This document shows, piece by piece, positions 32,631 through 41,564 of a DNA stretch of 62,373 nucleotides; within the stretch, counting starts at the first letter, position 1; each line of letters begins with the position of its first letter. The DNA is from Steroidobacteraceae bacterium. Its GTDB lineage: Bacteria; Pseudomonadota; Gammaproteobacteria; Steroidobacterales; Steroidobacteraceae. A program made the translations under genes and the position numbers. The notes below the pieces were generated by a model. It saw only the letters and a list, made by a program, of their open reading frames with translations, was not told the DNA's origin and did not search any database. Location of the stretch: assembly GCA_035281265.1 (NCBI GenBank), contig DATEEF010000125.1:1-62373 (forward strand), written 5' to 3'.

Positions 32631-32706
32631 TGGCGCCCCGGGCCGGAGTTGAACCGACGACCTGCCGCTTAGGAGGCGGCCGCTCTATCCACTGAGCTAC
32701 CGGGGC
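32631..32706 (-). tRNA. tRNA-Arg (anticodon CCU)
   Basis: Reverse complement GCCCCGGTAGCTCAGTGGATAGAGCGGCCGCCTCCTAAGCGGCAGGTCGTCGGTTCAACTCCGGCCCGGGGCGCCA. Anticodon loop CTCCTAA. 7-bp acceptor stem. Confidence 0.95.
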
Positions 32707-32779: not shown

Positions 32780-33202
32780 TCAGGCCGCCTGGGCGGATGC
32801 CGCGGCCGGAGACTGGCGCGGCTCGGCAAGCGATTGGTCGACGGCAACCGTCGCCTGCTCGACTTTCGTCGCGGCCACGCTGACGAGGTCGGTCGCCGCC
32901 CTTTCGACCGTACGGGTCGCCGAGCGGACGTTCCTCGCCGTGCTGCGGATCGCCGAGCGGGCACCGCGCTTGGCGGCCCGGACCTTCCGGCGGGCAGCGC
33001 TCGTCGCCTTGCGGGCGGCCTTGCGCACCGTGCGCTTCGCACTGCGTACTGCAGAGCGCGCTTTCACGCGGGCGCCGGCCTTGCGCGCCTTGACCCGGAC
33101 CCGTGCCGCCGTCTTCCTGCGCGCCACCTTGCGCCGTACGGCGCGGCGCTTGCGCTCGATCGAGCGTCGCGCGGTTCTTGCTGCCTTCTTCCTTGCTGCC
33201 AT
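32780..33202 (-). CDS. highly basic Arg/Lys/Ala-rich protein, histone H1-like / AlgP-like (140 aa)
   Basis: GGAGAGAACCC-ATG SD. MAARKKAARTARRSIERKRRAVRRKVARRKTAARVRVKARKAGARVKARS... followed by a less basic Ala/Val/Thr-rich tail. The competing frames are antisense junk. Confidence 0.6.
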   Translation of the reverse strand: MAARKKAARTARRSIERKRRAVRRKVARRKTAARVRVKARKAGARVKARSAVRSAKRTVRKAARKATSAARRKVRAAKRGARSAIRSTARNVRSATRTVERAATDLVSVAATKVEQATVAVDQSLAEPRQSPAAASAQAA

Positions 33203-33313: not shown

Positions 33314-33389
<76 letters not shown>

Positions 33390-34515: not shown

Positions 34516-35179
34516 GCCACGGATGATAGCGCGGCCTTGGGTCGTCCTGCTCGCCGCGGGCGGGTCGCGGCGCTTCGGCGCGCCCAAGCAGTTCGCGCGC
34601 ATCGGCGGCGAGTCGATGTTGCGGCGCGCGGTCCGCAGCGCCGTTGCGATTGCACCGGCCGGCTGCGTCGTGGTGCTCGGTGCGCAGGCGGGTCGACTGC
34701 GTCAGGAGCTATCCGGCTTGCCGGCGCACGTGGTCGTGAATCGTGCCTGGCGGCGCGGCCTCGCCTCGTCCCTCGCCGCGGGTATCTCCGCGCTGCCGCG
34801 GACTGCCAGGGCCGCGCTCATCGTCCTTGCCGACCAGGCGTCACTCGGCCCGGGTGACCTCGCACTGGTCGCCGCCGCCTGGCAGGCGCGGCCGAGGTCC
34901 ATCGTCGCGAGTCTGGCCGGCGGCATCCTCGGCCCGCCCGCGCTGTTCCCGCGGCGGCTCTTCCCGGAACTGCGCCGCCTGCACGGCGACCAGGGCGCGC
35001 GTGACTTGCTGCGCGATCCGGCAAGGTCGGTCGTCGGCATCGAGCTGCCTCGGGCGGCGCTCGACGTGGACACGCCCGCCGACGCCGCGCGGGTCAGGAA
35101 TCGGACAGCGCGCGGCCGAACTCCTCGATCCGCGCGATCGTCCCCCGCACGTCGTCCCAGGTCGTCTGGTGGGACATGA
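34514..35179 (+). CDS. MobA-like NTP transferase family protein (MocA/molybdenum-cofactor cytidylyltransferase-like)
   Basis: VVLLAAGGSRRFGAPKQF, NRAWRRGLASSLAAG, IVLADQ. The start is ATG 34514 or 34523. The last ~25 codons overlap the convergent decarboxylase gene. Confidence 0.75.
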   Translation: MPRMIARPWVVLLAAGGSRRFGAPKQFARIGGESMLRRAVRSAVAIAPAGCVVVLGAQAGRLRQELSGLPAHVVVNRAWRRGLASSLAAGISALPRTARAALIVLADQASLGPGDLALVAAAWQARPRSIVASLAGGILGPPALFPRRLFPELRRLHGDQGARDLLRDPARSVVGIELPRAALDVDTPADAARVRNRTARGRTPRSARSSPARRPRSSGGT

Positions 35180-36533
35180 TGCAGAGGCGCAGCGAATAGG
35201 CCTTGCGCAGTCGGGTCGAGGAGATCATGGCGGTACTGGACGCGATGACGCGCGCCTGGATCGCTTCATTGAGCTTGTCAATGCGCTCTGCAGTCCAGGC
35301 CTTGCCGCGCGGGAGATACCGGAAGCAGACAATGCCGAGGGACGGCGGGCCGAGCAGCTCCAGCTCCTGGCTGGCTTCGACGAGCGCGCCCGCCTGTGTC
35401 GCGAAATCGATCCCGCGCGCGATCGCCTCGCGAAAGCGGGCCATGCCGAAGGTCTGGATCGACATCCACACTTTGAGCGCGCGAAAAGACCGCGTGAGCT
35501 GGTAGCCCCGGTCCGCAAAGTTCACGTGCTCGAGCCCCAGCTTCGTGTCCTGGAGATAGTCCGGATTCACGCTGAAGGCGCGCACGAGGTGCGCGACGTC
35601 CTTGACCATGACGCAGCCCGCCTCGAACGGCTGGAACAGCCACTTGTGGGCGTCGAGGCTGATCGAGTCGGCGCGCTCGAGGCCCCTGAGCAACCGCCGG
35701 CCCTGCTCGCACAGGACGGCGAAGCCGCCGTAGGCACCGTCGACATGCATCCACAGCTTCTCGGCGGCGCAGAAGTCCGCGATCGCAGGCAAGGGATCCA
35801 CCGCGCCCGTGTTCGTCGTGCCCGCATTCGCGCAGATGGCGATCGGCGTGAATCCCCCCGCCCGCGCCTCCTGAACCGCAGCGGCAAGCGCCGGCACCGT
35901 AACCCGGTAGTCGCCGGCCGCGGGCACGATGACGATGCCTTCCCGCCGCACGCCGATGATGCGCGCCGCCCGCTCGACCGCCGAGTGCGTCTGGTCGCCC
36001 AGGATGACAGCGGGACGATCCGGGGCGCCGGCCCATTCCCGCGCGGCGACGAGCGCATCGAGGATTGCCGCCGATCCGCCCGACGTGAAGAGCCCTCCAG
36101 CAGATTCCGGGTAGCCGATCCAGTCGCGGATCCAGTCGATCACGACGAGCTCGACCTGGCTCGGTGCGCCGGCGCCCAGCCAGGTTCCCTGGAACGTGTT
36201 GAATCCCGCGGCCAGGTAGTCGGCGATCACGCCCGGCCAGGTTGGCGCAGAGGGCACGAAGGCGAAGAAGCGTGGATGGTCGACGCGCCCCGCAACGGGC
36301 AGGACTTCCCGCACGGCGCGCTCGAGGACCTCGACGGGGTCGCTCCCCTGCTCCGGCGGCGGTTCGCGCAGCAATCGCTCCAGCTCGGCACGGCTGGCGC
36401 CGCGCCAGGGTGCATCGTCGCGCAGGCCCGCCAGACGCTCCAGCAGCCCTCGCGTCGCGGCGTCCGCGAGCCGCCGCATGGTATCTGGCGACAGCGTCAG
36501 GCCGTCCCGGTCGTCCTGCGAACGGTCCGTCAC
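35094..36533 (-). CDS. group II pyridoxal-phosphate-dependent amino-acid decarboxylase
   Basis: HPRFFAFVPSAPT, FTSGGSAAILDAL, HVDGAYGG, PLP-lysine motif SLDAHKWLFQP. I chose GTG 36533 (GGAGA about 14 nt upstream) because the conserved N-terminal helix LSPDTMRRLADAA lies before the next ATG. Confidence 0.85.
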   Translation of the reverse strand: MTDRSQDDRDGLTLSPDTMRRLADAATRGLLERLAGLRDDAPWRGASRAELERLLREPPPEQGSDPVEVLERAVREVLPVAGRVDHPRFFAFVPSAPTWPGVIADYLAAGFNTFQGTWLGAGAPSQVELVVIDWIRDWIGYPESAGGLFTSGGSAAILDALVAAREWAGAPDRPAVILGDQTHSAVERAARIIGVRREGIVIVPAAGDYRVTVPALAAAVQEARAGGFTPIAICANAGTTNTGAVDPLPAIADFCAAEKLWMHVDGAYGGFAVLCEQGRRLLRGLERADSISLDAHKWLFQPFEAGCVMVKDVAHLVRAFSVNPDYLQDTKLGLEHVNFADRGYQLTRSFRALKVWMSIQTFGMARFREAIARGIDFATQAGALVEASQELELLGPPSLGIVCFRYLPRGKAWTAERIDKLNEAIQARVIASSTAMISSTRLRKAYSLRLCIMSHQTTWDDVRGTIARIEEFGRALSDS

Positions 36534-36541
36534 GCCGGGCT

Positions 36542-38461
36542 CTAGTCTCCGGTCGTCACCGCGGTCGCACCGCGATCGCCGTGCTGGCTGCGGACGATCT
36601 TGAGGCAATCGCGGTCGGTGATGATCCCGACGAGCTTGCCGTTCGCGAGCACCGGCAGGCAGGTCAGGTCGCGGGAACCGAGGAGTGCGATCGCCTCCGC
36701 GATCGGCGTGTCCGGCGTGACGGTCGGTGGATCGCGCTCCATGACGTCGGCGGCGCGCAGCTCGGTTTCGTCTTCACCCGGCGCGAGCTTCGCCAGGAGG
36801 GACTCGCTCGAGACGACGCCGAGCAACGTCCCATCGTCCGACTCCACGGGAATGTGCCGGACGTTGCTCCACAAGAGGAGGCCCCGGACCAGCTTGACCG
36901 GCTCGTCCGGCTGCGCCGTGACGAGGTCCGTCGACATGATGTGCTCGACCCGCGAGCAGCGGTCCCTGGCGCTCTCCGCCTCGGCGAGCCGGCTCGGCTG
37001 CCAGCGATGCACGGGGTGGCCGAGCTTCTGGCGCTGGTAAATGCCTTCGGTCGTCGCCGCAATGGCCTCGTGGCGCGAGCTCTCGCCTTCCAGGCGTTCT
37101 ATCGAGTCCAGGATCCACTGCGAGCCTGTCTTGCCGCTGCGCACTCGCTCCTCGATGATCGACAGGTACTTGTCGATGTCGGCATCCTGCACCGCCGCCC
37201 TTTGCAGGCCGCCACGCGCAATGGGGAGCAGGGTCTCGAGCAGCAAGGTGCGCGCGGGAATGGACTGGCCGTCGAGCCAGTCGATCGATGCGCCAAGCCC
37301 GACCTGCGCCGCAGCCAGGAAATTGCCGTGCGCCTCCTCGAACCTCAAGCGGGGCGGCAGGTCGGCGCAGTCGTCCGGCATGCCGTGCATCAGCCCGACC
37401 CACAGCGCCGCATTCGCCACTTCGTCGACGATCGTCGGGCCCGCGGGCAGGAAGCGGCACTCGATGCGCAGGTGCGGCTTCCCGCTGGTGATCCCGTAGC
37501 AGGGCCGGTTCCACGGATAGACCGTGCCGGTGAAGAGGCACAGCGCCTTCAGCTTCGGGATGCGGCCCTCCTTCAGCTCGACCAGCGCATCCTGCTCCAT
37601 GGCCGGCGTGATGAGGACCCGGTGCCGGCTGATCTCCTCCTGGTAGTACTCGACGACGGACCGGTTCTCCCAGCGGTGCCCGAAGCCGACGCGCGGGCGC
37701 TGCTCGCGGTAGGTGCTCGGCAGGCGGCGGTCGTCGGTGGACTGGTGGAACACCGCGATGCGCGTTTCGCGCCACAGCCGCTTGCCCAGGAACAGCGGCG
37801 AGTTGGTCGCGCAGGCGAGGACCGGCGCAGCGATCGCCTGCGCCCAGTTGAACTGGGACGCGAAGCGCGCCGGGTCGATCTGGTAGTGGACCTGGAAGCT
37901 CGTGTTGCAACCCTCGACCATCACCGTGGCCTTGCTCGTGATCAACTCCTCGATGCCGCGGATGTAGAAGTGGAAATCCTGGCCGCGCAGCTCGCGCAGC
38001 GCGTCGTTCAGCAGCTTGTAGCGCGGAACCGGCGTCAGGTTGTCGAGCGTGATGTCCGAGTCCCGGATCGTCGGCAGGATGCCCGTGAGGATGATCTTGG
38101 CGCCGAGCCGGTGCGCGGCCTTGTTCGCGCGCGTGAGCAGCTCGATCAGCTCGTGCTCCAGCTGCGAGAAGCAGTCGCCGCCGAGCTCCCGGGGATCCAG
38201 GTTCACTTCCGCGTTGAAACGCGCGAGCTCGGTCGTGTAGTGCGGATCGTCGAGGCTCTGGAGCAGTTCCATCCCGAGCATCGCGGGCCGCAACGCATAG
38301 TCGATCAGGCACAGCTCCTGCTCGGCACCGATGCGCGTGACCCCGCTCTCGAACATCCCCGCCGCCAGCATTTTCTCGAGGGCTTTCAGGTCGTCGACGA
38401 GATGCACCATGTACGCGGTACGCTGCCTTGGGTCGCTCGCACCGAATTTCGTGTCACCCAT
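36542..38461 (-). CDS. GCS2-family carboxylate-amine ligase (glutamate-cysteine-ligase family 2-like) fused to a C-terminal CBS pair
   Basis: Internal ATG 38461 (MGDTKFGASD). RIGAEQELCLID and GCNTSFQVHYQ ligase motifs. Two CBS repeats in the last ~130 aa (HIMSTDLVTAQPDEP..LLGVVS and VMERDPPTVTPDTP..LVGIITDRD). Confidence 0.8.
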   Translation of the reverse strand: MGDTKFGASDPRQRTAYMVHLVDDLKALEKMLAAGMFESGVTRIGAEQELCLIDYALRPAMLGMELLQSLDDPHYTTELARFNAEVNLDPRELGGDCFSQLEHELIELLTRANKAAHRLGAKIILTGILPTIRDSDITLDNLTPVPRYKLLNDALRELRGQDFHFYIRGIEELITSKATVMVEGCNTSFQVHYQIDPARFASQFNWAQAIAAPVLACATNSPLFLGKRLWRETRIAVFHQSTDDRRLPSTYREQRPRVGFGHRWENRSVVEYYQEEISRHRVLITPAMEQDALVELKEGRIPKLKALCLFTGTVYPWNRPCYGITSGKPHLRIECRFLPAGPTIVDEVANAALWVGLMHGMPDDCADLPPRLRFEEAHGNFLAAAQVGLGASIDWLDGQSIPARTLLLETLLPIARGGLQRAAVQDADIDKYLSIIEERVRSGKTGSQWILDSIERLEGESSRHEAIAATTEGIYQRQKLGHPVHRWQPSRLAEAESARDRCSRVEHIMSTDLVTAQPDEPVKLVRGLLLWSNVRHIPVESDDGTLLGVVSSESLLAKLAPGEDETELRAADVMERDPPTVTPDTPIAEAIALLGSRDLTCLPVLANGKLVGIITDRDCLKIVRSQHGDRGATAVTTGD

Positions 38462-39473
38462 GGTCCGCCTCCCGGCAGGACACGGCGTAGAACAGGCAAT
38501 CCTCGGCGGCGATGCGTGCGTCCGTCGTCGCCATGAAGAGGCGCAGGGGCCGGCGCGCGTGCAGCCGACCCTCATGCAGCGTGAGCAGGTCATCGCGCAG
38601 CTCGACGCCGCGGCCGTCGCGCGCGGTGAGTACGTCCATACCGGCGATCCAGCCGAGCGGATCGGTCTCCGTCAGCACCGACGAGTTGAAGCGGTCGATG
38701 TCCCGCCGCAGGGTGAGCGCGGCCCCGGCCGCGGGCTCGCTGCCGTAGGCGACGGCGGCACCGTCGGCGAGCCGGACGCGGATCGGGTGACGCAGCACTT
38801 CCACCGCGGAGCCGCCCTCGCGCGCCCCAAAGAGCGACTGGGCGCCGAGATAGCGCGCGAGCCCCTCGTAGCCGATCTCGTCCGAACGCGGGTCGCGGGC
38901 GCCGCCGCATTCGATGGTGACCGTCGGCCAGTCGTCTTCTGCCGCTTCCATGAGCGTGCCGAGGCGGATGTCGGTGAGGACATGGTAGCCGGAAAACAGC
39001 GACACCAGCGCCAGCTGCGCCGGATCCGCGCGCGTCCCGACGCCGTAGCAGGGTCCCAGGCCGGACGTGTTGTGCAGGTCCACGAGAGCCTCCGGTCGCG
39101 CCGTCCGCAGGTCAGCCAGGACGGCCCGGGCGAGGCGGGCCTCGTTGTCGGTGCCTGCATCGGCAAAGCAGCGGTTGAGGTCCTTGCGGCCGGGCAACAT
39201 GCGGTGCGCGTAACCCGGCGGCGCAAGTGCGGCATCGACCGATGCGACCAGCGCCATGACGTTCGTCGCAGGCCGCATTCCATTCCGCAGGAAGCGGTGC
39301 AGCGCCCGCGTGCCCGAAGGCTCGTTGCCGTGCAGCAGGGTGGTGACGGCCCGCGTGCGCGCGGGGTCCTCCCCGGCCAGGCAGATCCAGGTCGGCCCGC
39401 CGAGCAGTCGCAGGAATTCCTCCGCGTCCTGCCCGACGGCCGTGCTGTCGGGGCTATTCCAGCGGCGTATCAA
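38454..39473 (-). CDS. M14-type zinc deacylase, succinylglutamate desuccinylase/aspartoacylase (AstE/AspA/DoeB-like) family
   Basis: Zn and catalytic motifs LLHGNEPSG, GRKDLNRCF, LVDLHNT, VTIECGG. TTG start at 39473. The stop overlaps the next gene's ATG (ATGGGTGA). Confidence 0.8.
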   Translation of the reverse strand: MIRRWNSPDSTAVGQDAEEFLRLLGGPTWICLAGEDPARTRAVTTLLHGNEPSGTRALHRFLRNGMRPATNVMALVASVDAALAPPGYAHRMLPGRKDLNRCFADAGTDNEARLARAVLADLRTARPEALVDLHNTSGLGPCYGVGTRADPAQLALVSLFSGYHVLTDIRLGTLMEAAEDDWPTVTIECGGARDPRSDEIGYEGLARYLGAQSLFGAREGGSAVEVLRHPIRVRLADGAAVAYGSEPAAGAALTLRRDIDRFNSSVLTETDPLGWIAGMDVLTARDGRGVELRDDLLTLHEGRLHARRPLRLFMATTDARIAAEDCLFYAVSCREADHG

Positions 39474-39516
39474 GTCAGCAGTCCCGCAGATATGGGCGGT
39501 TTCAATCGGAAAATTC

Positions 39517-39606
39517 TGGCGGAGAGGGTGAGATTCGAACTCACGAGGGGCTTGCGCCCCTGCCGGTTTTCAAGACCGGTGCATTCAACCGCTCTGCCAC
39601 CTCTCC
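39517..39606 (-). tRNA. tRNA-Ser (anticodon UGA)
   Basis: Reverse complement GGAGAGGTGGCAGAGCGGTTGAATGCACCGGTCTTGAAAACCGGCAGGGGCGCAAGCCCCTCGTGAGTTCGAATCTCACCCTCTCCGCCA. Long variable arm. Anticodon loop CTTGAAA. Confidence 0.95.
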
Positions 39607-39625
39607 ATCGCGTCCCCCGCGGATT

Positions 39626-40789
39626 CTAGATCATCGCCTGCATGAGGAGCCGCAGCAGGTCGCGGAGCGGCATCACGAGCAGCAGGAGCGGCAGCATGGG
39701 GGCGAGCGCCGCCACTGCGTAAGCAATGGCCGTCTTGAGCGAGATCGGCAGCAGGCGCATGTCGTAGACGCGATCGAGGCTCCCGCCGATATCCGCGAGT
39801 CCCTGCACGTCGCCCGAGGACTCGAGCGGGGTTTCCCCTGCCTGCGTGCCGATCCATCGCGCGTGAAAGTCCTGGATGTACTTCGACGCAAACGAACCGT
39901 ACACCAGCACGGCCGCTTCCTTCGCCATGCGCAGCGGCCGCCAGAAAACCGCGAGCGGCGCGAGGCCGAGCGCGATGGAGATCGCGACGAACGCTGCAAG
40001 CGGCCACTGGTAGCTCAAGAGGGACGCGCCCTCGTGCAGGACGCGCGTGGCGATGGCTCCCGCGACGAGGCAGCTGACGGTGAATCCGAGCTGCGCAAAC
40101 GCGGTATGGCCGAAACTCACGAACCCGAGTCCCGCGGACTGGTCGGGATGCGTCGCGAGTACCTGCAGGTCGAGCCGCGACAGTCGCTGCAGGAACCAGC
40201 ACCAGACTACGTAGCGCCAGAACCAGCGCAACAGCAGGAAGGACGACAGCCAGGAGCCGATGACATACCACCAGCCTGCGGCGGACAGGCGCGCCCCCTC
40301 GGGCGTCATCTCCTCGAACCAGAACTGCAACCCGTCGCCTCGGAAATTCTGCACCGCCGACCAGACGAAGCAGGCCGCCAGGCCGGCGATCACTGCTTCG
40401 ACAGGCGCAGATTCGAAAGCGCGACCGGCCTTGCGCAACAGCGCGTCGAAGCGCGGGCGATCTGCGGCGGAAACGAGCCGCGCCTCGACGAAGTGGGAGG
40501 CAACCTGCTTCGTGCGCCGTCCGATGCTCGCCTCGACAAGCACCAGCAGCGGGACGACCAGCAGGAAGCGCACGTGCGTGGAAAGGTCGTCGAAGAAGCT
40601 CACGGCCGCTCCGCCCTCTATCGGGGGCTTCACGAGCTCGAGCACCAGCAAGGGGACCCAGACCAGGACCGCCGGCAGGAAGGCGCGCACGAACAGTCGC
40701 GGAGGATCCCCGCTCGGCAAGCCGACGCGGGCCAGCGCCCGGTCCACGGGCCCGCAGTTCGTGAGCGAGAATTTGTCAGATTCAGCCAT
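39626..40789 (-). CDS. hypothetical polytopic inner-membrane protein (387 aa)
   Basis: Internal ATG 40789 behind GGGAGGGG. At least 6 hydrophobic helices, Trp-rich segment GWWYVIGSWLSSFLLLRWFWRYVVWCWFL. No family recognised. Confidence 0.65.
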   Translation of the reverse strand: MAESDKFSLTNCGPVDRALARVGLPSGDPPRLFVRAFLPAVLVWVPLLVLELVKPPIEGGAAVSFFDDLSTHVRFLLVVPLLVLVEASIGRRTKQVASHFVEARLVSAADRPRFDALLRKAGRAFESAPVEAVIAGLAACFVWSAVQNFRGDGLQFWFEEMTPEGARLSAAGWWYVIGSWLSSFLLLRWFWRYVVWCWFLQRLSRLDLQVLATHPDQSAGLGFVSFGHTAFAQLGFTVSCLVAGAIATRVLHEGASLLSYQWPLAAFVAISIALGLAPLAVFWRPLRMAKEAAVLVYGSFASKYIQDFHARWIGTQAGETPLESSGDVQGLADIGGSLDRVYDMRLLPISLKTAIAYAVAALAPMLPLLLLVMPLRDLLRLLMQAMI

Positions 40790-40886
40790 GGCTGCCCCTC
40801 CCCCGGCGCCGCCCGGCCGGCGGACGAGGATGTAACACGCCTCGGCTATACTTGGCACCTGTCCACCGGGGCTACGGAGAATCGCC

Positions 40887-41564
40887 ATGGAACGCAATCC
40901 CGTCGTCGTCTCAGGACGCGTCGAATCCGGCCAGTCGGTACTCGCGACCCACAAGGTCCTGCGAAACACGTACCTGCTGCTGTCCGCGACGCTCGCATTC
41001 AGTGCGCTCGTGGCGGGCCTCAGCTATGCGTTGAACCTGCCGTACCTCGGACCCTGGGTGACCCTGATCGGCTATTTCGCGCTGCTTTTCGCGGTGCACA
41101 AGACCGCTGACAGCGCCTGGGGACTCCTGTCCGTTTTCGCGCTGACGGGTTTCATGGGCTACACGCTCGGCCCGATCCTCAGCCTGTACGTACAGGCCAT
41201 TCCCGACGGGCACACCGTCGTGATGACCGCTTTCGGAATCACGGCGGTCACGTTTCTCGCGTTGTCGGCCTATGCAATCCGGAGCGGGCGGCGATTTTCC
41301 TTCATGGGCGGCTTCCTGGCCGTCGGCATCCTTACGGCCTTCCTGCTCGGCATCGTTTCGCTGGTGTTTTCGATGCCGACGCTGGCGCTCGCGGTGTCGG
41401 GCATGTTCGTGCTGCTGATGGCCGGGCTCATCCTGTACGAGACCGGTGAGATCGTGCACGGCGGCGAGACCAACTACATCCACGCCACCGTGACGCTCTA
41501 CGTCAGCATCTACAACCTCTTCACGAGCCTGCTGCACCTGCTCGGCGTCGCCGGCGACGACTGA
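40887..41564 (+). CDS. Bax inhibitor-1/YccA family membrane protein
   Basis: 225 aa, 7 TM helices. VLRNTYLLLSATL, typical C-terminal region YLDFINLF-like (YVSIYNLFTSLLHLLG). Confidence 0.9.
   Translation: MERNPVVVSGRVESGQSVLATHKVLRNTYLLLSATLAFSALVAGLSYALNLPYLGPWVTLIGYFALLFAVHKTADSAWGLLSVFALTGFMGYTLGPILSLYVQAIPDGHTVVMTAFGITAVTFLALSAYAIRSGRRFSFMGGFLAVGILTAFLLGIVSLVFSMPTLALAVSGMFVLLMAGLILYETGEIVHGGETNYIHATVTLYVSIYNLFTSLLHLLGVAGDD

Follow-up and report, generated by a model that had tools for sequence, protein, structure and literature searches.

Beside the gene for tRNA-Ser(UGA), in the 62,373-nucleotide stretch of Steroidobacteraceae DNA that was analysed (hereafter the window), lie three closely spaced enzyme genes, encoding a deacylase, a ligase and a decarboxylase. 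The question raised by this locus is whether the three form one pathway, as an earlier note on this DNA had proposed, or whether their proximity has another origin. The genes concerned are as follows.

39517-39606, minus strand: tRNA-Ser(UGA) (found with ARAGORN; anticodon tga)
38454-39473, minus strand: deacylase ORF (TTG start, 339 aa)
36542-38461, minus strand: ligase ORF (ATG start, 639 aa)
35094-36533, minus strand: decarboxylase ORF (GTG start, 479 aa)
34523-35179, plus strand: MobA-like NTP-transferase gene (Pfam NTP_transf_3, 106 bits)

The deacylase, ligase and decarboxylase are intact ORFs on the same (minus) strand, and the layout first described for them was reproduced throughout, i.e., the coordinates, the 8-nt stop/start overlap of deacylase and ligase (ATGGGTGA at 38454-38461), the 8-nt gap between ligase and decarboxylase (agcccggc, 36534-36541) and the 43 nt that separate the 3′ end of tRNA-Ser from the deacylase start. 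Contigs from an independent rhizosphere metagenome run (X1), which extend over 35619-36638, 36616-38994 and 39288-39545, cross every junction, so the gene arrangement is not an artefact of assembly. The GTG start of the decarboxylase lines up with the ATG starts of its orthologues in an alignment and is preceded by GGAG; together with the 8-nt spacing, this makes it very likely that the decarboxylase is co-expressed with the ligase–deacylase pair at this locus, where it may have gained a functional tie to the pair. Neither promoter-like nor terminator-like sites were found on the minus strand within the three-gene block, which is weak evidence, compatible with a single transcript, and co-transcription of the three genes at this locus is probable, in keeping with the operon originally suggested. 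The MobA-like NTP-transferase gene, which is convergent and overlaps the 3′ end of the decarboxylase by 86 nt (an arrangement that is the same in the related contigs L088, L089 and L096), marks the end of both the transcription unit and the conserved backbone.

The enzyme classes that had been read from the sequence (an AstE/AspA-type M14 enzyme, a GCL-fold ligase with a CBS pair and a group II PLP decarboxylase) were borne out by Pfam and structure comparison, and the catalytic motifs described as intact are all present in the translations, with most of their residues invariant in family alignments. The decarboxylase matches Pfam Pyridoxal_deC (PF00282) with 233 bits and contains SLDAHKW, and its best PDB matches score 286 (4obu), 219 and 208 bits. 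On these scores it groups, as a predicted group II PLP enzyme, with the aromatic-amino-acid-decarboxylase-like proteins, and not with the DABA, glutamate or CSAD enzymes among which a placement had also been considered. The DABA decarboxylases (RhbB/Ddc) were rejected because the NCBIfam model gave 237 bits against a cut-off of 900 and the PDB DABA enzyme 2qma gave 180 bits against 286 for the aromatic one; none of the NCBIfam equivalogs for DABA, Tyr, His, Glu or PanP enzymes fitted. With the aromatic L-amino-acid decarboxylases (the R. gnavus tryptophan decarboxylase 4obu, and those for DOPA and tyrosine) the protein shares the S-x-D-A-H-K PLP-lysine motif, but its gene differs from theirs in being a syntenic core gene of a Steroidobacteraceae-like group, located beside tRNA-Ser.

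The deacylase matches Pfam AstE_AspA_cat (PF24827) with 30.7 bits against a cut-off of 25, and its translation holds HGNEPSG, DLNRCF, DLH(N) and IECGG. In an alignment of 18 sequences, ranging down to 46% identity, H48, E51, N100, R101, H134 and E188 are invariant. Of these, H48, E51 and H134 are predicted to be the zinc ligands and E188 the general base, with N100, R101 and R91 as the predicted carboxylate-binding residues. No PDB relatives of the deacylase were found by sequence profile; the top Foldseek matches of its AF2 model (pLDDT 90.8) were 3cdx, DoeB/EutE (6twm), AstE (1yw6), ASPA (2gu2) and CphZ (8ein), and at the level of the model the protein was confirmed as an AstE/AspA-type M14 zinc amidohydrolase with a two-domain fold. 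It has in common with AstE, aspartoacylase, DoeB (EutE) and CphZ the H-x-x-E...H zinc triad, the catalytic Glu, the DLNR motif and this fold, but its subfamily, a distinct one with some 1000 known members, is tied to GCL-fold ligases and not to AST, ectoine or cyanophycin genes. An identity as aspartoacylase (NF002601, 20 bits against a cut-off of 180), as succinylglutamate desuccinylase or as DoeB proper was rejected, there being no equivalog-level score, no ast or doe genes near the locus, and no AST or ectoine doe/eut context. The AstE/AspA family can cleave iso-dipeptides, the precedent being its member CphZ, which cleaves the iso-dipeptide beta-Asp-Arg (PMC9974463).

The ligase consists of two parts.

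36992-38461, minus strand: ligase catalytic domain, aa 1-490 (delimited by Foldseek and invariant residues)
36578-36973, minus strand: C-terminal CBS pair (Bateman module), about aa 497-628 (Pfam CBS, PDB profile, Foldseek)

Its translation contains (GA)EQELCLID and SFQVHYQ, and the residues E47, Q48, E49, Q190, H192, Q194, R332, E334 and R336 are invariant in family alignments (E47, E49, E85, H192, R332, E334 and R336 in a set of 18 sequences). The window ligase scores 18.7 bits with Pfam GCS2 (PF04107), under the cut-off of 21, and PF04107 is found among the precomputed Pfam matches of nearly all its homologues. No PDB match for the catalytic domain was obtained by sequence profile. Foldseek, applied to the AF2 model (pLDDT 78), returned the plant GCL 2gwc (E 5e-12), YbdK (1r8g, TM 0.76), the yeast GCL 3ig5 and 1tt4, with a probability of 1.00, and the modelled domain was thereby confirmed to have the glutamate-cysteine-ligase/YbdK (GS-like) fold. 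What it shares with GCS2/YbdK and the GCLs is this fold, for which Foldseek gave E values between 5e-12 and 4e-10 and a TM of at most 0.76 on the target. Its invariant E-x-E, His and R-x-E-x-R residues are putatively of the kind that binds Mg/ATP in the superfamily. It differs from them in its identity of only 12-18%, in the lack of an equivalog match, in the length of its catalytic domain (~490 aa, compared with ~370 aa in YbdK), in the fused C-terminal CBS pair and in its recurrent M14 partner gene. From this we infer an ATP-dependent carboxylate-amine ligase of an uncharacterised family, distant from all ligases that have been characterised.

The structural matches raise the possibility that the ligase is a divergent but true glutamate-cysteine ligase, in which case it would supply a thiol buffer of gamma-Glu-Cys, controlled through the CBS pair by energy or redox state, and the M14 enzyme would recycle this buffer as a gamma-glutamyl-dipeptide hydrolase. 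This would be a specific case of the explanation favored below; the best structural matches are indeed the plant and yeast glutamate-cysteine ligases and YbdK, and the sole sub-threshold family matches are GCS2 and EgtA. The sequence identity to the GCLs nevertheless amounts to the 12-18% given above, the EgtA equivalog (TIGR03444) has a cut-off of 370.8 bits, of which the ligase reaches 17.4, the models for other GCLs (GshA included) gave no match, and the recurrent neighbours of the ligase include neither glutathione synthetase nor any other gene of a thiol pathway. A bona fide GCL was rejected at the equivalog level, and the thiol-buffer reading is unlikely.

The C-terminal part contains two CBS repeats (Pfam, 88.6 bits), the second of which carries an invariant G-x-x-T615-x-x-D618, a ribose-binding-type motif. 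Its PDB profile matches are MJ1225 and AcuB, and Foldseek adds MJ0922, CBSX2-AMP and AcuB with AMP/ADP/ATP (rmsd about 2 Å). Like the CBS modules of AcuB, CBSX2, MJ0922 and the OpuA/ProV tails it has two repeats, which superpose on nucleotide-bound AcuB, and to judge from the model it probably gates the activity of the ligase by binding an adenosine-type ligand, i.e., in response to energy state. The literature searched contained no account of a GCL-fold ligase that carries a CBS pair.

How the three genes came together can be followed in related Steroidobacteraceae contigs, in which the decarboxylase occupies the same syntenic position and the deacylase and ligase are missing. The backbone rarA-serS-Bax1-I-tRNA-Ser-decarboxylase-NTP_transf_3-His_Phos-AhpC-tRNA-Ala-tRNA-Arg is retained without the pair in L088, L089 and L090, and decarboxylase orthologues at the pair-less site are 76-83% identical. 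In L090, 21 nt lie between tRNA-Ser and the decarboxylase start; in L088 and L089 the gap is occupied by nSTAND1/TPR genes. In blastn comparisons the homology of the window to L090, L088 and L094 ends exactly at 39517, the 3′ end of the tRNA, and that to the empty site picks up again at the start of the decarboxylase, with the resumption at 36504 (blastn and junction alignment). The break and the resumption together define the deacylase and ligase as an insert.

36534-39516, minus strand: inserted two-gene segment, deacylase and ligase, ~3.0 kb (from blastn synteny breaks and junction alignment)

By these alignments, insertion of the ligase–deacylase module between tRNA-Ser and the decarboxylase is a recent event in this lineage: the ancestral genome would have had the decarboxylase directly 3′ of tRNA-Ser, and the module would have been placed between them later. 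On the same comparison the decarboxylase is a resident syntenic neighbour, which adjoins the module and is no part of it. The same segment is found in L081 (86% nt identity over 39471-36577) in an unrelated context, between DUF3291 and HxlR genes, and L082 and L083 hold the pair in yet other contexts. The 3′ end of tRNA-Ser is, as far as the alignments indicate, the upstream boundary of the insert and, in relatives, a site of variable cargo or of integration; L094 has a sulfatase insert flanked by a 59-nt exact repeat of the 3′ part of the tRNA. The pair resembles tRNA-linked genomic islets in that it lies directly 3′ of a tRNA and that relatives have it, lack it or carry other cargo in its place. 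It differs from them in that no integrase ORF was found around it, no att repeat or direct repeat of the tRNA 3′ end in 36300-39700, and no deviation in GC content.

Comparison across genomes leads to the same division. The full trio was seen in very close relatives alone, at 95% identity for the ligase and 92% for the decarboxylase, the arrangement being kept in a sister lineage at ~90% nt identity. It is missing in L081-L085, L088-L093, L102 and L001-L080, of which L079 comes from a cultured carrier, Nannocystis exedens DSM 71. Where the ligase is 87%, 73% or 66% identical, the deacylase accompanies it and the decarboxylase does not, and the pair stands without a decarboxylase in L081-L085, L091 and L102. 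Among the 80 distant ligase loci (43-51% identity) none has an adjacent decarboxylase and two have a 34-35%-identical one 4-6 kb off; Pyridoxal_deC is absent from the recurrent neighbour families. The M14 gene, on the other hand, recurs. Within the clade of the window, all relatives whose contigs extend to that side of the ligase (L081-L085, L087 and, from the L094-L101 set, the four contigs that do so) have it upstream, either overlapping the ligase or separated from it by no more than 44 nt. In 31 of 72 distant loci, from more than 10 phyla, the gene directly downstream and in the same orientation encodes an M14 enzyme of another subfamily, AstE_AspA_cat being the sole recurrent family among 145 downstream neighbours. 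In Nitrospirae-like genomes, window-type M14 genes are overlapped and preceded by GCS2 ligases that lack CBS repeats and show 36% identity over 476 aa. The pairing thus occurs in three arrangements, with two M14 subfamilies and with ligases that do or do not carry CBS repeats, and the adjacency across divergent genomes is non-random. The hydrolase is not obligatory in cis, since in 41 of the 72 distant loci the ligase stands without an M14 gene beside it; in SAR324 (L093) one window-type M14 gene occurs without an adjacent ligase. The conserved unit, as these comparisons define it, is a portable two-gene module of a ligase and an AstE/AspA-type M14 enzyme. A lack of co-occurrence, which the earlier note had named as an outcome that would refute its proposal, was thus observed for the decarboxylase; part of the note's logic, a ligase together with a hydrolase for its amide, is retained.

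A three-step pathway in a newly assembled, functionally linked operon, in which the ligase attaches the amine from the decarboxylase to a carboxylate (e.g., as a gamma-glutamyl amide), with the M14 enzyme trimming or recycling an N-acyl intermediate, would accord with the common strand, the 8-nt overlap and gap, the lack of a terminator-like site between the genes, the retention of the trio in the sister lineage and the decarboxylases in the neighbourhood of two distant loci. The distribution of the genes speaks against it: L088-L090 hold the decarboxylase at the same site without the pair, the pair dispenses with the decarboxylase in L081-L085, L091, L102 and 78 of the 80 distant loci, and no Pyridoxal_deC gene is a recurrent neighbour. 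There is also a chemical objection. In aspartoacylase the DLNR Arg of the M14 pocket pairs with the free alpha-carboxylate of the substrate, and such a carboxylate, which the invariant residues of the deacylase lead one to expect, is missing from a decarboxylated amine. The single three-gene cassette or pathway originally put forward is thus quite unlikely, while the accompanying statement that no characterised pathway matches the gene set was upheld.

Reversible tagging of a macromolecule would be a different use for a ligase and a hydrolase: the ligase would add an amino acid or peptide to a carboxylate or amine of a protein or peptide, in a PafA-Pup-like manner, and the M14 enzyme would remove it, as cytosolic carboxypeptidases remove glutamates. 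M14 enzymes do include protein deglutamylases. The pair is portable and lies in a variable tRNA-linked region where relatives carry the conflict-type nSTAND1/TPR genes, and the GS/GCL-fold family includes the protein ligases PafA/Dop (PMC2588565). However, no conserved small ORF or target gene is found beside the pair, the M14 partner falls by fold and motifs into the small-molecule AstE/AspA branch and not the CCP branch, and the PADLOC defence-system models gave no match for ligase or deacylase, which makes tagging very unlikely. A catabolic route of the Puu/Ipu type, with gamma-glutamylation of an amine as a handle for its processing and its release by an amidohydrolase, has the ligase-plus-amidohydrolase logic of PuuA/PuuD-type pathways but is highly improbable, as it needs oxidase or dehydrogenase genes, of which there are none in the module and none recurrent among its neighbours, and uses glutamine-synthetase-type ligases and class I amidotransferase-type hydrolases in place of GCL-fold and M14 enzymes.

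The best explanation, which we consider reasonably probable, is that a portable make-and-break amide module, composed of a CBS-gated ligase and an M14 enzyme, was inserted beside a resident aromatic-type decarboxylase. The ligase would form an acyl phosphate from a side-chain or simple carboxylate (e.g., the Glu gamma-carboxyl or the Asp beta-carboxyl), and would then couple this to the amine of an amino acid, resulting in an iso-dipeptide or an N-acyl-amino-acid. The M14 enzyme, with an Arg/Asn-Arg pocket holding the free alpha-carboxylate, would hydrolyse the same kind of bond. Whereas the folds, catalytic residues, insertion and pairing statistics are observed, we infer which class of substrate is used, which way the cycle runs and what the CBS pair binds. 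A ligase and a hydrolase acting on one bond would amount to a futile cycle unless regulated, and the regulation is assumed to come from the CBS pair, which would sense an adenosine-type ligand and control the ligase. The insertion of this module between tRNA-Ser and the decarboxylase means that the three genes are probably transcribed together here but represent no conserved pathway; ligase and M14 enzyme would together set the level of a small amide, which may serve as a solute, as a storage compound or as the precursor of a thiol.

The locus is laid out as follows:

39517-39606, minus strand, tRNA-Ser(tga), called with ARAGORN
38454-39473, minus strand, deacylase ORF, TTG start, 339 aa
36542-38461, minus strand, ligase ORF, ATG start, 639 aa
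35094-36533, minus strand, decarboxylase ORF, GTG start, 479 aa

The sequence bears out the earlier note on the overlap ATGGGTGA, on the gap of 8 nt and on the 43 nt that separate the tRNA from the deacylase; every motif quoted there was found in the protein translations, and the GTG start of the decarboxylase was aligned to the ATG of its orthologues. All junctions of the block are covered by contigs of an independent rhizosphere metagenome run, and the gene arrangement is therefore real. The window is high-GC (~0.66-0.72 around the locus), and no promoter-like or terminator-like site was found within the block on the coding strand. Soil and rhizosphere metagenomes commonly hold the locus, with 20 runs each containing over half of the words sampled from it. 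Soil metatranscriptome contigs gave only sparse matches to the ligase and the decarboxylase (92-95% identical), none of them spanning a junction. A contig from one such run, X27, matches the 3′ end of the ligase (window 36542-36682), with the similarity ending precisely at the stop codon of this gene, which fits expressed ligase relatives with a different downstream neighbour.

The earlier note had read the three genes as one amidoligase pathway and had proposed a survey of gene neighbourhoods, which was run on distant and on closer ligase loci and did not bear this reading out. The distant set, searched with the window's proteins, comprised 80 loci from GTDB representative genomes of more than ten phyla (43-51% ligase identity). 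A deacylase of the window type adjoined the ligase at none of the 80, and a decarboxylase (34-35% identical, 4-6 kb off) was present at just two, L048, where it lies on the opposite strand, and L071; as evidence of linkage these two were set aside, being compatible with chance. Among closer relatives (contigs L081-L085, with ligase identities of 87%, 73% and 66%), the deacylase lies directly upstream of the ligase in all, and the genes downstream are unrelated (HxlR, alpha-amylase, Hva1_TUDOR). The decarboxylase follows the ligase only in contigs with a 95%-identical ligase, to which the trio is thus limited.

Conversely, the related contigs L088, L089 and L090 carry decarboxylase orthologues (83%, 82% and 76%) at the same site, with the pair of deacylase and ligase missing and the backbone of the window kept, i.e., rarA, serS, Bax1-I, tRNA-Ser, decarboxylase and a convergent MobA-like NTP transferase, followed by histidine phosphatase, AhpC/TSA, tRNA-Ala and tRNA-Arg. 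In L090, tRNA-Ser and the decarboxylase start are 21 nt apart; blastn homology between the window and this contig stops at 39517, the 3′ end of the tRNA, and restarts at 36504, and in the junction alignment the break falls immediately ahead of the start codon of the decarboxylase. The intervening 2.9 kb has an 86%-identical counterpart on L081, a contig from farmland soil with unrelated flanks. The lack of the pair in L088-L090, the homology breaks and the unrelated context in L081 together argue that deacylase and ligase were inserted as a unit of two genes beside a resident decarboxylase gene. The pair showed no integrase, no flanking direct repeats or att sites, and no anomaly in GC or skew. 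A three-step pathway assembled locally, decarboxylase included, would account for the trio in the closest contigs; the decarboxylase without the pair in L088-L090 and the pair without the decarboxylase in L081-L085 speak against it. The first proposal, an orphan pathway of three enzymes, does not hold for the locus, and it is highly probable that the conserved unit is the pair, with the decarboxylase as a bystander. Annotators may take from this that tight, operon-like packing by a tRNA can come from insertion beside a resident gene, and need not mean a common pathway.

The tRNA-Ser site itself is active. In the sister-lineage contig L094, which has the trio, tRNA-Ser and the deacylase are separated by a 2.2-kb insert with a 634-aa sulfatase gene, which the window does not have. 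On one side of the insert stands the full tRNA (L094:1644-1733), on the other an exact repeat of 59 nt from its 3′ part (L094:3930-3990; corresponding to window 39517-39577), an att-like signature of site-specific integration into tRNA-Ser. The gap between tRNA-Ser and decarboxylase in L088 and L089 is filled by nSTAND1/TPR genes, which makes the site a variable hotspot. This cargo (L088:4297-7625, L089:3346-7684) consists of an nSTAND1/TPR protein of 862-1235 aa and a 227-247-aa protein without a Pfam match, and looks conflict- or defence-like.

Some further features of the backbone were observed. The 3′ end of the decarboxylase gene (35094-35179) overlaps the convergent NTP-transferase gene (34523-35179, plus strand) by 86 nt, and an overlap of this type is retained in L088, L089 and L096. 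An ORF of up to 447 aa between Bax1-I and tRNA-Ser (39626-40969, minus strand), which by eye resembles a membrane protein and matched neither Pfam nor PADLOC models, belongs to the conserved backbone (in L090 and L094 it has 340-387 aa). A highly basic, Ala/Arg/Lys-rich ORF of 140 aa (32780-33202, minus strand) without a Pfam match lies between tRNA-Arg(cct) (32631-32706) and tRNA-Ala(cgc) (33314-33389); at the same position in the contigs L094-L101, a 140-157-aa gene is called, also without a Pfam match.

The enzyme classes first assigned to the three proteins, a GCL-fold ligase with a CBS pair, an AstE/AspA hydrolase and a decarboxylase, stood. The Pfam GCS2 score of the ligase (18.7 bits) is below the cut-off of 21. 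Sequence profiles against the PDB gave no meaningful match for the deacylase or for the catalytic domain of the ligase (residues 1-490); for both, matches came from fold comparison only. The AlphaFold2 model of the ligase (pLDDT 78) matches plant glutamate-cysteine ligase 2gwc (E 5e-12), as well as yeast GCL 3ig5 and E. coli YbdK 1r8g (TM 0.76 on target), and its C-terminal 130 residues, with two CBS repeats (Pfam, 88.6 bits), superpose on the CBS pairs of nucleotide-bound AcuB, MJ0922 and CBSX2. Relatives with identities as low as 45% share E47, E49, H192, R332, E334 and R336 without exception, and likewise T615 and D618 of the second CBS repeat. The likeness to 2gwc would suit a true gamma-Glu-Cys ligase, against which it counts that no NCBIfam equivalog applies (EgtA, 17 bits vs a cut-off of 371). 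PADLOC defence models gave no match for the ligase or the deacylase. The deacylase (Pfam AstE_AspA_cat, 30.7 bits) gave a model (pLDDT 90.8) that matches 3cdx, DoeB/EutE 6twm, AstE 1yw6, aspartoacylase and CphZ, and its H48, E51, H134, E188, N100 and R101, invariant in the family alignment, are the predicted zinc triad, general base and carboxylate-binding pair of the AstE/AspA family.

The decarboxylase (Pfam Pyridoxal_deC, 233 bits) was compared with characterised classes in the PDB and scored best with the tryptophan decarboxylase of Ruminococcus gnavus (4obu, 286 bits), followed by DOPA and tyrosine decarboxylases (about 200-220 bits), the DABA enzyme 2qma (180 bits), GAD (~145 bits) and CSAD (~129 bits), without reaching any NCBIfam equivalog cut-off. 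Its orthologues with 71-99% identity are abundant, and named sources all label them Steroidobacteraceae. All three proteins belong to known superfamilies, none reaching a characterised subfamily.

The coupling of ligase and M14 hydrolase extends well beyond the window. A gene of a different AstE/AspA subfamily lies downstream of the ligase on the same strand in 31 of the 72 distant loci with enough downstream sequence (~390 aa, median +33 nt, nearest PDB sequence aspartoacylase); the other 41 have no adjoining M14 gene, and the link is not universal. AstE_AspA_cat is the sole recurrent Pfam family among 145 downstream neighbours, and on the upstream side of the distant loci BLAST clustering gave no family that recurs. 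In L052 (1860-3743 and 3801-5702) and four other loci, two tandem CBS-ligase paralogues precede the M14 gene. The window-type deacylase has ~1000 relatives, and in two of three distant contexts, the Nitrospirae contig L091 (near-duplicate L092) and L102, the deacylase start is overlapped by a GCS2 ligase of 495-497 aa that lacks the CBS pair and shares 36% identity with the window ligase over 476 residues. The third, the SAR324 contig L093, has no ligase nearby; its 487-aa neighbour, considered as a hidden ligase, proved unrelated. With three gene orders, two M14 subfamilies and an optional CBS pair, the link far exceeds what chance would give for a family with one or a few members per genome.

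Two intact enzymes, a GCL-fold ligase with a CBS pair and an AstE/AspA-type zinc hydrolase, are thus genomically coupled. GCL/YbdK-type enzymes activate a carboxylate as an acyl phosphate and transfer it to an amine, and AstE/AspA enzymes hydrolyse N-acyl amino acids with a free alpha-carboxylate on the amino-acid part. By analogy, a GCL-like ligase would be expected to yield products of the type X-CO-NH-CH(R)-COOH, exactly the type that its partner would hydrolyse, which led to the proposal of a make-and-break cycle: the ligase would make, and the M14 enzyme break, a gamma-glutamyl- or beta-aspartyl-type dipeptide or an N-acyl amino acid, with an adenosine ligand at the CBS pair gating synthesis. 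CphZ, of the AstE/AspA family, cleaves the iso-dipeptide beta-Asp-Arg (PMC9974463). This chemistry is put forward tentatively, as somewhat less than an even chance, whereas the explanation as a whole, conserved pair, bystander decarboxylase and chemistry, is on balance probable. A Puu-like catabolic handle is a very improbable reading of the pair. CBS-gated reversible tagging of proteins or peptides in a pupylation- or glutamylation-like cycle, with the GCL-fold ligase as writer and the AstE/AspA-type enzyme as eraser, spread horizontally over more than ten bacterial phyla, is very improbable.

The GCL-fold ligase-CBS fusion and its recurrent M14 partner are undescribed in the literature searched. 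The ligase family comprises at least 7,487 clusters, all named only "CBS domain-containing protein", from Bacteroidota, Balneolaeota, Calditrichota, Acidobacteriota, Gemmatimonadota, Myxococcota, Planctomycetota, Gammaproteobacteria and others, and because it is so large and broad, biochemical follow-up is worthwhile. The recurrent AstE/AspA amidase partner suggests that many soil and marine bacteria make and break, under sensor-domain control, a small amide metabolite or a modification that has gone unrecognised. The identity of the product would annotate thousands of genes, and a new solute, thiol or nitrogen store could come to light.
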